This document shows positions 10,814-18,095 of a stretch of DNA of 38,574 nucleotides, one piece after another. The position numbers were made by a program, and so were the translations under genes. The stretch spans positions 1-38,574 of the forward strand of contig CAYPXS010000001.1 in assembly GCA_964414725.1 (NCBI GenBank), in the 5' to 3' direction. The notes beneath the pieces were generated by a model. The model was not told the origin of the DNA. It saw only the letters and a list, made by a program, of their open reading frames with translations, and made no database searches. Position 1 is the stretch's first letter; every line of letters starts with the position of its first letter. This DNA comes from an uncultured Dehalococcoidia bacterium. Its GTDB lineage: Bacteria; Chloroflexota; Dehalococcoidia; Lucifugimonadales; UBA826.

Positions 10814-10953
10814 ACAAATTGCACCGTTAAAATCTCTATAAATCAAAATTGCTGCCCTTCAGGGGAAACACCGCATATTAAGACTTGATCATATCCATAT
10901 TTATATTTTACGGTAAACTAGCTCCACTGTACTTACAAAGACGGGAGATTCAC

Positions 10954-11583
10954 ATGGATAAAATGGAATTCGACGTATTTTTCGATTTTGCTTGACCTTT
11001 TGTTTACAATGCGGCCGTGTGGCTGGATAAAGTCAAAGAACATTACGGTGAAGGCCTTCAACTTAATTGGAGAAACTTTTCGCTTCAGCAAATAAACGCA
11101 AAAGATCCAGGAGATTGGCGTGTTTGGGAGGAAGAGGATTTTACCTCTACCAGATCTTTAATGGCTTCGATTGCAGGAGAGGCAGCGAAAAGACAAGGCC
11201 CAGAATTATTCAATAAATTTTTCCTTGCGCTTCTTACAGCCAGACACGGCGGGGATAGGGCTCCATTGAATGACGAATCTTTGTTTATTCAAATAGCAGA
11301 AGAATGTGGGTTGGATGTAGAGAAATTTCAATCTGATATGAAAGATTCTGAGCTCGTAGACATAATCGCAAAGGATCATACCGAGGCCACTGAGGTTCAC
11401 GGAGCCTTTGGAACTCCAACTTTTATTTTCGACAATGGACAATCTGCCTATCTGAAAACATTTATTCCTCCTGAAGAAGAATCAGTAGATGCCTTCAAGT
11501 ACTTTTTGGGGTTGTTTGAAAGTAGGCCCTATATAGGGGAAGTAAAGCGACCTCAGCCACCTTGGCCTAAAGGCGCAGTATAA
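10954..11583 (+). CDS. DsbA-like thioredoxin-fold protein, modelled as a candidate selenoprotein with in-frame TGA (Sec) at 10993-10995. The ORF-track model 11017..11583 is its 3' portion.
   Basis: GGGAG (10943-10947) plus a 6-nt spacer precedes ATG 10954. The translation is MDKMEFDVFFDFA-[TGA]-PFVYNAAVWLDKVKEH... in the same frame as the 188-aa ORF. The TGA falls where DsbA/HCCA-isomerase-like proteins carry the first Cys of FDFxCPxC. The C-terminal part has GAFGTPTFIF, the family's cis-Pro loop. Confidence 0.55.
10993..11035 (+). promoter_or_regulatory. SECIS-like stem-loop starting at the in-frame UGA
   Basis: Lower stem: UGAC(C)UUU (10993-11000) pairs with AAAGUCA (11029-11035). Upper stem: CGGCC (11012-11016) pairs with GGCUG (11021-11025; four Watson-Crick pairs plus one G-U). 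Apical loop: GUGU (11017-11020), about 21 nt after the UGA. Confidence 0.4.
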
Positions 11584-11603: not shown

Positions 11604-12269
11604 ATGTTTCCCAATATCGAAAATAGGTTTGATGATCAAAGTCTATTTAGACTTAGCATGACACATTCCTCGTGGGTTAACGAATCTAAAGGTCTGGATA
11701 TTCAATCTAATGAACGCCTTGAGTTTTTAGGAGATGCGGTTCTGGATGCTGTAGTAGGGCAATATTTATACGCCAAATACCCCAACCACCCTGAGGGAGC
11801 CTTAACACAATTTAGGTCAAACATTGTAAGTGGAGCCGCTCTAGCTGAACTAAGCAGACTGTTAGGAATAGGACCATATCTAGTGTTGGGAAAAGGGGAA
11901 GATGCTTCTGGTGGACGAGATAAAGATTCTAACTTGGCGAATGCATTCGAGGCCTTGGTAGGGGCTTTATTTATAGATGGTGGGTTTGAGGTTGCAAAGA
12001 ATTTTATCTTGGAAAGTATAGATATAAAAGCTAGAAATGCCGAATTAATCGACAGTCAACATGATTCAAAAACAAAGTTGCAAATGGCTGTCCAGGCCAA
12101 ATGTTCCGTGCCCCCTCATTATCGGGTTATTTCTAAAGAAGGGCCCGATCATGAACCTACGTTCGTAGTAGAGGTTTTGATAGGCGAAAAGGTTATTACT
12201 ACCGGAAAGGGAACTAGTAGAAATCGAGCCGAAATGCAAGCAGCATCAAGAGCTTTGAAGATGGTGTGA
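11604..12269 (+). CDS. rnc: Ribonuclease III
   Basis: 221 aa. It has the RNase III signature ERLEFLGDAVLD, the motif NAFEALVGALFIDGG, and a C-terminal dsRBD (PHYRVISKEGPDHEPTFVVEV...AEMQAASRAL). Confidence 0.93.
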   Translation: MFPNIENRFDDQSLFRLSMTHSSWVNESKGLDIQSNERLEFLGDAVLDAVVGQYLYAKYPNHPEGALTQFRSNIVSGAALAELSRLLGIGPYLVLGKGEDASGGRDKDSNLANAFEALVGALFIDGGFEVAKNFILESIDIKARNAELIDSQHDSKTKLQMAVQAKCSVPPHYRVISKEGPDHEPTFVVEVLIGEKVITTGKGTSRNRAEMQAASRALKMV

Positions 12270-14164: not shown

Positions 14165-15532
14165 ATGATTGATTTACTGTCTGTTGCTCGAACAGAGGCA
14201 AGTGGGGGTGATTTGCTTGGCTTGCTTTCGGGTCTGTTCGAATCTTCGGATGTAAGACCGGAAGGCTATTCCGACGCAGTAGTTTGGCAAGGTGGAAACC
14301 ATAACAGCAATCTAAATCCAGTGGCACATTCTTTGACTGACGCCTACGCGTTGTTGGGAACTATAGCCGCGGCGGATATATTGGGACTTCCATTTTATGC
14401 AGTTCCAATGTGGTCACAATATAGACACGATACCAAACTAGAGTCTCTTGCTTGGTTTGGTAACATGCCATGCACGTCTATCAAATGGTCTACCGCGGGA
14501 GATGCCTATGTAAATGATGGTAGTGGGGGTAGGGTTGTTGTAATGGGAAAATCTGGTAATGCACCTTTAAGAACTCAGGCTGGGGTTTACTGCAACGTAA
14601 GACCATACGGGCCTATTACAGTAGTGAGATGTATGCCCTGTCTTCCTTACTCTCAAGACAAAGAGAAATTTGGAGTTAATGAATCGGGCATTGTACATTC
14701 AGAAATGAATACGCCTGGGGTTCAAATGGCCTATGCTAATAGGCTATTCCTTAAAATGGTAAATGATAGCGGACACTTGGGTCGTGTTGCTATGAAGCCT
14801 ACGCAGGCTATGGAAGATGGAATCAATGCCGGATTACATTCATGGTTGTTGAAAGGCACTAAATTTGAGGTTGGTAGGCGGTATGCTGTGGACCCATATG
14901 AAGAACATAAAGATCGTATAGATAAGATCGTTTCACTTCTACCTTCTGATTTTAAGGATGGAATGGAAAATTGGGGAGGCAGGATTGAGCAACATATTTC
15001 AGATACCAACTATGGTCTACTGATATGGGATCTTATAGAGCAGAGAGATACCATAGTCCTCGCGACGGATCTGGACGGTGATAGGTTAACAGACCTATTA
15101 GCTGATATTTCCGACCCATTGCGTGCCTTTGGTGACAAAGTGGTTCAGCATGTAGGTAACGATGTAAGCATGCGGGATGCGTGGTCTGAAATGGGGTATA
15201 CCACCGGTAATGGAAGGGATATGACCTCAGTTATGCATAGGATGGATGGGCCACCAATACATGAGCAGACCCTTGGTTCCGCAGATGCCATGTTGCTACG
15301 CTTACTTGACGGGGATGAATCTATGGGGGGAACCAAGAGACCTTACGATCCTAGAATACATTTTGTGTTGATACGTGATGCATATCTAGATGCCAATCCC
15401 GGTAATTCTGAACTAAAGGATTGGTTAGACAATGCCCTCGATGTTTTTGACGGGATTTATGGAGAGAACAGACCGGGATTCCTTGAAGGTTATAAAGCTT
15501 TAAAGGAAGGCATTACTGCCTGGGGGGCCTAG
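14165..15532 (+). CDS. Hypothetical cytoplasmic protein with no family recognised
   Basis: 455-aa ORF with a good SD (AGAGGTG, 6-nt spacer) and an ATG start. Its composition looks like normal coding sequence. I see no signal peptide or TM segment. I see no motif I can assign. Confidence 0.75.
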   Translation: MIDLLSVARTEASGGDLLGLLSGLFESSDVRPEGYSDAVVWQGGNHNSNLNPVAHSLTDAYALLGTIAAADILGLPFYAVPMWSQYRHDTKLESLAWFGNMPCTSIKWSTAGDAYVNDGSGGRVVVMGKSGNAPLRTQAGVYCNVRPYGPITVVRCMPCLPYSQDKEKFGVNESGIVHSEMNTPGVQMAYANRLFLKMVNDSGHLGRVAMKPTQAMEDGINAGLHSWLLKGTKFEVGRRYAVDPYEEHKDRIDKIVSLLPSDFKDGMENWGGRIEQHISDTNYGLLIWDLIEQRDTIVLATDLDGDRLTDLLADISDPLRAFGDKVVQHVGNDVSMRDAWSEMGYTTGNGRDMTSVMHRMDGPPIHEQTLGSADAMLLRLLDGDESMGGTKRPYDPRIHFVLIRDAYLDANPGNSELKDWLDNALDVFDGIYGENRPGFLEGYKALKEGITAWGA

Positions 15533-16812: not shown

Positions 16813-17039
16813 TTGATATTCCTTTATCAGTCTCTAAAAAAGCTATCTATTTAATATTAATCCATCGGGACGTAGCGGTGGGTGAAAATAAAAATCTAGA
16901 ATTCGGTACTTGATTAAAAACTCTTGGAACAAGTTGTCTTGCCTAGCTACTATAGCTACTGTAGAGTAATTGTAGGTATTTATCATGTATTTGACATGTA
17001 AAAACAAGTCGAAATAAAAGGAAATGGCGGCCTTTCACA

Positions 17040-18095
17040 ATGGGCAAAGGTATTCTCCAAACTTATAAACAATTCCTTCCCATTACCTCTGAAACTCCAA
17101 TTTTTACCCTGGGTGAAGGCAACACCCCTTTAGTTGAATCACGGAATATTGCGAAGGAAGTAGGATGTAATTCCTTATTCTTTAAGTTGGAGGGATGTAA
17201 TCCAACAGGTTCATTTAAAGATCGAGGAATGGTTGTGGCTGTCGCCAAGGCTGTTGAAAAAGGGATTCGTTCTATAGCCTGCGCCTCCACAGGTAACACA
17301 AGTGCCTCTGCAGCGGCATACGGAGCTCATCTTGGTTTGCGAACGACCTTGATCGTCCCTAAGGGAAATGTAGCAAGAGGTAAGCTAGCTCAGGCCGTAG
17401 CATATGGAGCCCATATAGCTCTAATTGACAGTAATTTCGACAGAGCTTTAGAAATTACTCGTGAATTGTGTGAGAGGCATCCTATTGAATTGGTAAATTC
17501 ACTAAACCCTAATCGTATCGAGGGTCAAAAGACGGCTTCTTTTGAAATCATTGAGGAACTGAAAAAAGCCCCTGATCATCTTTTCATTCCGGTCGGCAAT
17601 GCCGGTAACATTACGGCATATTGGAAAGGTTTCGTTGAAGCTCGACAAGAGGGCCTTTCCGATAATTTGCCTGTGATGAATGGATATCAAGCATCCGGAG
17701 CATCGCCAATAGTTGACGGACACATTGTGGAACAGCCTCGCACGGTAGCTTCTGCCATACGCATTGGGAATCCTGCTAGTTGGGAATTGGCTTTAAAGGC
17801 TCGAAATGAATCGAACGGTGTGATTGATAAAGTTGACGACGATGAGATCTTAACGGCCTATCGTAGATTGGCGGCTGAAGAAGGTGTTTTCTGTGAACCT
17901 GCCTCTGCAGCGTCGTTGGCAGGTTTGCTTAAAAGAGTTAGAAGCGGCGAATCTTTTAAAAATAAGAACATTGTATGTGTAATTACAGGCAATGGACTTA
18001 AAGATCCTGATATTGCTAATGAAATAGAACCTGTGTCCTTAGAGGAATATGAGGCTAACATCGAATCAGTGGAAGATGCGCTTTCATTGTCATGA
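17040..18095 (+). CDS. thrC: Threonine synthase (short form)
   Basis: 351 aa. It has TLGEGNTPL, the PLP-lysine motif NPTGSFKDRG, and ASTGNTSASAAAY. Confidence 0.93.
   Translation: MGKGILQTYKQFLPITSETPIFTLGEGNTPLVESRNIAKEVGCNSLFFKLEGCNPTGSFKDRGMVVAVAKAVEKGIRSIACASTGNTSASAAAYGAHLGLRTTLIVPKGNVARGKLAQAVAYGAHIALIDSNFDRALEITRELCERHPIELVNSLNPNRIEGQKTASFEIIEELKKAPDHLFIPVGNAGNITAYWKGFVEARQEGLSDNLPVMNGYQASGASPIVDGHIVEQPRTVASAIRIGNPASWELALKARNESNGVIDKVDDDEILTAYRRLAAEEGVFCEPASAASLAGLLKRVRSGESFKNKNIVCVITGNGLKDPDIANEIEPVSLEEYEANIESVEDALSLS

Follow-up and report, generated by a model that had tools for sequence, protein, structure and literature searches.

The window analysed here (38,574 nucleotides of contig CAYPXS010000001.1, from an uncultured Dehalococcoidia bacterium) contains on its forward strand a gene for a DsbA-like protein, whose reading frame is interrupted once by a TGA codon at the position of the redox-active residue. 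The frame opens with ATG 10954–10956, comprises 209 codons and closes at TAA 11581–11583. A Shine-Dalgarno-like GGGAG (10943–10947) is located 6 nucleotides 5' of the ATG, and TGA 10993–10995 is the only in-frame TGA between 10954 and 11583. These elements had been pointed out in an initial annotation, which regarded the gene as a candidate selenoprotein, and direct reading of the sequence agrees with it. The N-terminal part of the frame translates as MDKMEFDVFFDFA-UGA-PFVYNAAVWLDK..., with the putative selenocysteine (Sec, U) as residue 14 within the motif D-F-A-U-P-F-V. The open reading frame (ORF) lister starts at GTG 11017–11019 (Val22 of the longer protein) and yields a product of only 188 residues. 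The gene is also called at 188 residues in four public assemblies; the corresponding NCBI entry (P0003) is a 188-residue 'DsbA family protein'. When U is swapped for C in the 209-residue product, the Pfam DSBA domain (PF01323) is matched over residues 7–162 with E = 9e-17. Since the match begins at residue 7, the domain extends 5' of the annotated start. The longer gene model is further sustained by tblastn matches in other genomes and by structural modelling. All 630 of its 630 nucleotides, TGA included, are identical in four independent marine assemblies obtained from different samples, which represent the same population (99.7–99.9% identity over about 20 kb).

The codon at the U column was read from the DNA of relatives in a scan that took a single genome for each GTDB species and provided 80 loci, all of them from SAR202 or other Dehalococcoidia, with tblastn matches spanning residues 1–209. 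TGA is present in 78 of the 81 gene copies in these genomes, including long-read complete chromosomes, and TGT in the other three (L035, L038 and L039). A genuine Cys codon, TGC, stands at this column in L081, L082 and L088. Complete chromosomes with the gene include OZ253472.1 and OY762634.1, and the MAG RQOP01 shares 85.6% nucleotide identity with the window. No frameshift or further stop was found 5' of the GTG in any of the 81 orthologous copies, and the peptide is kept on either side of the UGA as D-[FY]-x-U-P-[WYF]-V-[YHF]-N-[AT]-A-V-W-L-D. A protein search gave 358 relatives, nearly all of 188–195 residues with 90% query cover, which is the same truncation; the handful of full-length relatives have Cys at the U column, in the context (F/Y)-D-(F/Y)-A-C-P-(F/W/Y)-V-Y-N-A-A-V-W-L-D. 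The possibility that the C of one of these records, P0082, was a translation artefact was rejected, as the DNA has a genuine TGC.

The initial annotation had placed the UGA exactly where DsbA-like proteins carry their nucleophilic Cys, and had proposed that lack of conservation upstream of the GTG, frameshifts or other stops in orthologues, or a residue other than the active-site Cys in homologues would favour a pseudogene or a shorter protein. The relatives show the opposite in every respect: the upstream region is conserved and free of other lesions, and the U column is occupied by Cys in the TGT and TGC loci mentioned above and by Cys24 in DR2335, a homologue from Deinococcus radiodurans. 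Thus, the correspondence between Sec and Cys at this position is directly observed. A conserved in-frame UGA, conserved flanks and Sec/Cys pairing are what is expected of a bacterial selenoprotein, and the three appear together here, judging from the sequence comparison.

The exchange between both residues can be followed over a short evolutionary distance. The Cys copy L082 (L082:916, with TGC) and the Sec copy L052 (L052:527, with TGA) share 96% nucleotide identity, and L082 retains intact the RNA hairpin that is described below; therefore, the one-base switch between Sec and Cys seems to be very recent or polymorphic. The gene can also be duplicated, as in a Chloroflexota contig from a metagenome-assembled genome (MAG), in which two tandem paralogues (L040:7633 and L040:8592) are about 960 nucleotides apart, both with TGA at the Sec codon and with the hairpin codons GCA GCC GTG TGG CTG. 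Another locus, L088:2491-2943, holds the Cys-form homologue P0111, whose source names Krumholzibacteria; a gene of the AhpC/TSA-Redoxin family follows it on the same strand after about 340 nucleotides and may point to a redox context.

The region just 3' of the UGA contains a conserved RNA element, which we predict to be the core of a selenocysteine insertion sequence (SECIS). The hairpin, at 11009–11028, is formed by the pairs 11009–11010/11027–11028 and 11012–11016/11021–11025, with a purine-G mismatch (11011/11026) between them, and by a GUGU apical loop (11017–11020) that starts 21 nucleotides after the UGA. RNAfold also draws the stem 11012–11016/11021–11025 with the GUGU loop. In the model for bacterial SECIS elements (bSECIS), the apical loop is 16–37 nucleotides from the UGA and has a G within its first two positions (PMC13188914); the loop found here, with G-U at positions 1–2, agrees with it in distance and in sequence. 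The GTG chosen by the gene callers is inside this loop, as had been noticed initially.

Comparison of the orthologues provides the main evidence for the hairpin. In 68 of them, 97.9% of the cells of the helix 11009–11016/11021–11028 are paired, and the changes are limited to A-U to G-U in eight sequences and C-G to U-G in one. The upper 5-bp stem and the loop about 21 nucleotides after the UGA, which the initial annotation had drawn from a single sequence, are thus conserved, and their synonymous sites are frozen. Among 73 distinct UGA forms, the codons +5 to +11 (AAT GCA GCC GTG TGG CTG GAT, 11008–11028) have a synonymous entropy of 0.1–0.35 bits, whereas it reaches 0.8–2.4 bits in the flanking codons. 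The four-fold sites of Pro +1, Val +3, Val +13 and Gly +18 vary freely in the same sequences (1.7–1.9 bits), so shared ancestry is not the reason for the frozen synonymous sites.

Codon choice at the hairpin, counted among the sequences with the majority amino acid, differs strongly from that in the remainder of the same genes and in low-GC relatives, a group that includes the window. GCC is used in 69/73 cases (35% elsewhere in the same genes, 19% in low-GC relatives), GTG in 69/73 (31% and 22%) and CTG in 72/73 (39% and 8%). Overall, these three codons reach 95–99% at the hairpin, compared to 31–39% elsewhere and 8–22% in the low-GC relatives. AAT is used in 70/73 cases (32% elsewhere, 70% in low-GC relatives) and GAT in 67/69 (34% and 73%). 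The loci with Cys codons are informative in this regard. The old Cys forms L035, L038 and L039 read AAC, GCT/GCA, GTT/ATT and TTA/CTA at the hairpin sites, and L088, also an old Cys form, reads ACC GCG GTC TGG CTC; these four no longer form the hairpin, whereas the recent ones, L081 and L082, still do.

The initial annotation had also proposed a lower stem opening at the UGA, 10993–11000/11029–11035, and this part of the structure was not upheld by the comparison. The stem can be drawn in the window, but its cells are 72% paired. Of its seven pairs, three are disrupted in over half of the 68 orthologues, and both invariant ones are fixed by coding. An alternative register of the lower stem was also counted, and it is conserved no better. 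RNAalifold keeps only a 4-bp core. Since the lower stem is not conserved, we think that the functional element is a minimal hairpin. It resembles the SECIS of the E. coli fdhF type in being a hairpin of the coding region located just 3' of the UGA, with a small loop starting with G-U. The differences are that the conserved part is very short here (5 bp, a mismatch and 2 bp), with no conserved lower stem, and that the SAR202 hairpin, a predicted SelB site, has no sequence similarity to the E. coli SECIS elements. A divergent Sec form was observed at L069:10039, which reads ...DYT-UGA-PFVYNAAVLLE with the codons GCC GCC GTG CTA TTG; neither the invariant Trp nor the standard hairpin is present in this form, which may therefore use a different SECIS.

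The structure of the protein was modelled with AlphaFold2 (AF2) on alignment A1. The model has a DsbA fold, with a predicted local distance difference test score (pLDDT) of 83 and a predicted template modelling score (pTM) of 0.82. Strand beta-1 comprises residues 4–10, U14-P15 stands just ahead of helix alpha-1 (16–34), a helical insertion extends over residues 44–149, and T154-P155 (codons 11413–11418) is just ahead of strand beta-3 (156–158). The latter pair belongs to the FGTPTF segment, which according to the alignment and the model is the cis-Pro loop of the thioredoxin fold; G153, T154, P155 and T156 are invariant columns, and we assume the cis conformation at Thr154-Pro155 from general knowledge of this fold. 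The C-terminal tail K-R-P-Q-P-P-W-P-K-G (residues 198–207, codons 11545–11574) is a signature of the family, invariant in alignment A1, although it was modelled with pLDDT below 50. Translation from GTG 11017 would eliminate strand beta-1 and the active site, as the initial annotation had warned; the ORF list and the model concur in this.

The active site distinguishes this protein from the best known members of the superfamily. Val17, which occupies the place of the resolving Cys of the UxxC proteins, is invariant in 73/73 Sec forms, and no other Cys is conserved in the alignment. Neither a signal peptide nor a CPHC-type dithiol motif, characteristic of classical periplasmic DsbA, is present, the motif being U-P-F-V, and the structures of the E. 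coli and Vibrio DsbA proteins have a template modelling (TM) score of just 0.49–0.54 to the model. The best match, both in sequence (E = 5.6e-16) and in fold (TM 0.77), is DR2335 (PDB 7DK9). Weaker fold matches are Rv2466c, FrnE, DsbM, kappa-class glutathione S-transferase (GST) and 2-hydroxychromene-2-carboxylate (HCCA) isomerase, with TM scores of 0.56–0.66. The protein does not fit in the HCCA isomerase/kappa-class GST branch, since the sequence match to 2IMD has E = 0.2 and the fold match a TM of about 0.6; moreover, the active-site residue is Sec or Cys here and Ser in the D-F-x-S-P motif of the HCCA isomerase branch.

In DR2335, as in the window protein, the motif holds a single nucleophile and lacks a second Cys; this nucleophile, Cys24, belongs to F-D-F-x-C-P-[YF]-x and aligns to U14. 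A related R-R-P-V-P tail at the C-terminus and a predicted cytoplasmic location are shared as well; the structure 7DKA is that of the C24S mutant of DR2335. DR2335 differs in having Cys instead of Sec, in its identity of only 27–30% and in belonging to another phylum. No description of its function was found in the literature on 7DK9/DR2335.

The closest known relatives are selenoproteins predicted in the Global Ocean Sampling (GOS) study of Zhang & Gladyshev (2008), whose 'DsbA 3' entry (pfam01323, UxxV) counts 72 Cys homologues besides 5 selenoprotein sequences that come from 3 samples (PMC2398784). The likeness includes the PF01323 domain, the U-P-x-V motif and the marine origin (PMC2398784). 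Identity over the full length is 43%, with E = 2e-63 for JCVI_READ_1091141065421 and 3e-56 for JCVI_READ_1592875. The context of the Sec residue also matches, IYFDFRUPFVYNVAVWL in the GOS read and VFFDFAUPFVYNAAVWL here, and so does the C-terminal signature GE(L/V)KRPQPP, which appears as GELKRPQPP in the read. Considering the full-length identity, the window gene is a member of the family predicted in 2008. The initial annotation had mentioned that DsbA-like selenoproteins were predicted from marine metagenomes and had read U-P-F-V as a form with a single redox residue; the GOS DsbA 3 matches support the precedent, and the published UxxV subfamily corresponds to that form. In 2008 the family had no organism assigned and was only a row of a table, whereas it can now be placed in SAR202/Dehalococcoidia with a defined SECIS core. 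We found in the literature no explicit link between SAR202 and a UxxV DsbA-like protein.

Other selenoproteins with the DsbA fold have been reported from marine metagenomes. The Sargasso Sea study of Zhang et al. (2005) described DsbA-like selenoproteins with UxxC (PMC1088965). Such proteins, known as DsbA-like form 1 or DsbA 1-2, have Sec as the first residue of the redox motif, as the window protein does, but they retain a resolving Cys that makes an intramolecular selenenyl-sulfide cycle possible, whereas the window protein has Val. GOS DsbA 1 (e.g., WVDPIUPWCWVTARW) is clearly another subfamily. A review of 2026 names a 'DsbA-like form 2 (DxxUP)' (PMC13188914), which may be the window family, as the D-F-A-U-P segment fits this motif. 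In NCBIfam the window family has no model of its own, and the sole match, at 23 bits, corresponds to a different selenolipoprotein family.

In view of these results, we think it very probable that 10954–11583 is the gene of a 209-residue cytoplasmic selenoprotein with DsbA fold from marine SAR202, with SECIS-dependent decoding of the UGA and a putative single-selenol mechanism. The conserved UGA, the Sec/Cys column and a hairpin specific to the UGA forms all favour the selenoprotein interpretation of the initial annotation. Translation would begin at ATG 10954, the hairpin 11009–11028 would bring SelB, loaded with Sec-tRNA(Sec), to the ribosome, and UGA 10993–10995 would be decoded with insertion of selenium as selenocysteine. 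Sec14 would then stand at the N-terminus of alpha-1, the place of the nucleophilic Cys in DsbA and thioredoxins. A cytoplasmic location is suggested by the lack of a signal peptide, as the protein begins directly with beta-1. With Val in place of the resolving Cys and no conserved Cys elsewhere, the single selenol presumably forms a selenenyl-sulfide with the substrate or with a low-molecular-weight thiol, which an external thiol would resolve. This would be a monothiol-type mechanism of an oxidoreductase (a reductase) or thiol-transferase, unlike the dithiol cycle of DsbA.

Several results weigh against this interpretation. Regarding the RNA element, the local 66-nucleotide fold has no extra stability with respect to shuffled sequence (z = −0.34), so the hairpin in a single sequence is not above chance and its significance comes from the comparative data. 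The initial annotation had suggested folding and covariation analysis across orthologues: the upper hairpin is conserved in 68–73 orthologues, which is in its favour, but no double compensatory change was found in the 68 orthologues, therefore the support comes from conservation and not from covariation. In addition, Rfam gave no family in the window and no SECIS match at either gathering or permissive thresholds. Regarding the machinery, the window and about 1.7 Mb of related loci yielded none of selA, selB, selD and tRNA-Sec, as searched with ARAGORN for tRNAs (window and 80 loci) and by tblastn with the SelA and SelD of E. coli as probes; no tRNA gene of any kind was found in the window. 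A SelA-like gene located 2–5 kb downstream in four loci was discarded, as it scores 207 bits with the NCBIfam model DgaE and 48 with that of SelA, whose cut-off is 268. As for the proposed chemistry, a review lists the DR2335-type proteins as lacking functional or expression data (PMC8945050).

The DgaE-family gene, which codes for a pyridoxal phosphate (PLP) enzyme of the D-glucosaminate-6-phosphate ammonia-lyase type, is found at L010:14471-15295, L015:5865-6494, L016:14053-15198 and L058:3405-4634, and it is absent from the window. Support for a Sec machinery comes from the literature, at the level of the class only. BSepDB, which required at least two of SelA, SelB and SelD, places marine Dehalococcoidia MAGs among the most selenoprotein-rich bacteria (PMC13326102), with 49 selenoprotein genes in UBA1141 and 46 in another one (PMC13326102). 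Further selenoprotein genes, as indirect evidence of the Sec trait, were sought in the window and related loci by scanning for conserved TGA-interrupted ORFs with redox motifs, and none was found beyond the DsbA-like family; the other TGA-interrupted clusters were off-frame shadows or natural TGA stops.

Among the alternatives, the one that resists best, although we consider it improbable, is that the UGA is read through as an amino acid other than Sec, either by Cys insertion with SelB and a tRNA(Cys)-UCA, by near-cognate Trp incorporation or by a reassignment in the whole lineage. A reference cited within PMC13582414 describes SelB-dependent insertion of Cys at UGA in other bacteria, and the failure to locate the Sec machinery in the window or related loci leaves room for it. 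Moreover, some annotation pipelines give W at the U column, as in P0011 and P0012 (L087:132-758). These W residues were rejected as evidence of Trp, since the DNA reads TGA and the proteins were called under a code in which TGA means Trp; they are software artefacts, and the TGA-containing DNA fails to give the query under table 11. The use of TGA in general also speaks against reassignment. Of the 31 genes of the window, 17 end with TAA, 11 with TAG and 3 with TGA, which is the rarest stop but an ordinary one, as had been stated initially, and an in-frame TGA interrupts no further gene of the window; hence we see no reassignment of this codon. The orthologous selenoprotein genes end with TAG in 50 cases, TAA in 24 and TGA in 5 (n = 79). 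Besides, Cys codons are the only ones with which the UGA is swapped, its position is redox-active and a SECIS-type hairpin lies 3' of it, which together are the standard signature of a selenoprotein, and Dehalococcoidia are reported as a selenoprotein-rich class. All this makes Sec the preferred reading of the UGA over Cys or Trp.

A pseudogene or a genuinely short protein is still less probable. According to this explanation, the TGA ends a remnant or leader of 13 codons and the true product is the protein of 188 residues that begins with GTG 11017 and that all pipelines give in public records; the GTG is indeed kept in nearly all orthologues. However, its conservation is accounted for by the invariant Val that it encodes and by its place in the SECIS loop. 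The 188-residue product would be devoid of beta-1 and of the whole active-site turn, whereas both the 13 codons that precede the TGA and the 7 that separate it from the GTG show protein-level conservation across 80 species, and the residues that they encode align one-for-one with full-length Cys homologues and with DR2335. A pseudogene would not keep one stop and no other lesion in 78 species. Finally, a sequencing or assembly error would need only a single-base change from TGC or TGT to TGA, such as the difference between L082 and L052, but it can be set aside because the TGA is identical in four independent assemblies and occurs in 78 species-level genomes as well.

With the selenoprotein gene as the preferred reading, the result is a correct call within an already predicted family (GOS 2008), not a new kind of selenoprotein, and it brings no change to the knowledge of how Sec is encoded. 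What is added is the placement of the family in SAR202, where the Sec form dominates, together with a minimal and near-invariant SECIS, recent switching from Sec to Cys or the reverse, and the scale of the truncation. NCBI, ENA, JGI and Logan contain hundreds of clusters truncated to about 188 residues without the active site, and a few with Trp; functional or structural inference from such records would be wrong, because they are truncated or translated with Trp. The short SECIS core could serve as a search model for further SAR202 selenoproteins.

A broader possibility, which we put forward only tentatively and consider rather less likely than its opposite, is that SAR202 as a whole keeps the UxxV DsbA-like protein as a core selenoenzyme, which would work with a single selenol and an external thiol. 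To our knowledge, such a mechanism has not yet been shown for any DsbA-fold protein. If it were true, the nearly universal presence of the protein and the large selenoproteomes reported for marine Dehalococcoidia would make selenium a required micronutrient for one of the most abundant bacterial lineages of the deep ocean.

Regarding the neighbourhood, the rnc gene for RNase III (11604–12269, forward strand, TGA stop), identified by the Pfam domains Ribonucleas_3_3, Ribonuclease_3 and dsrm, follows the DsbA-like gene in the same orientation after 20 nucleotides, and both are probably co-transcribed. Of 82 loci, 55 have the RNase III signature at most 1.5 kb downstream, the Cys-form loci L081 and L082 included, and L058 has it too. 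Such frequent adjacency need not be chance synteny and could have a functional basis.

Two other observations were made in the window. The segment at about 16969–17237 is shorter in one of the four assemblies of the population, L084 (L084:15366-15465), where the PALP/threonine-synthase-like gene codes for 252 residues instead of 351; this is either a deletion variant or an assembly difference. An ORF of 455 residues at 14165–15532 on the forward strand has no Pfam match at E <= 1e-5, and it is called as a gene in all four assemblies of the population.

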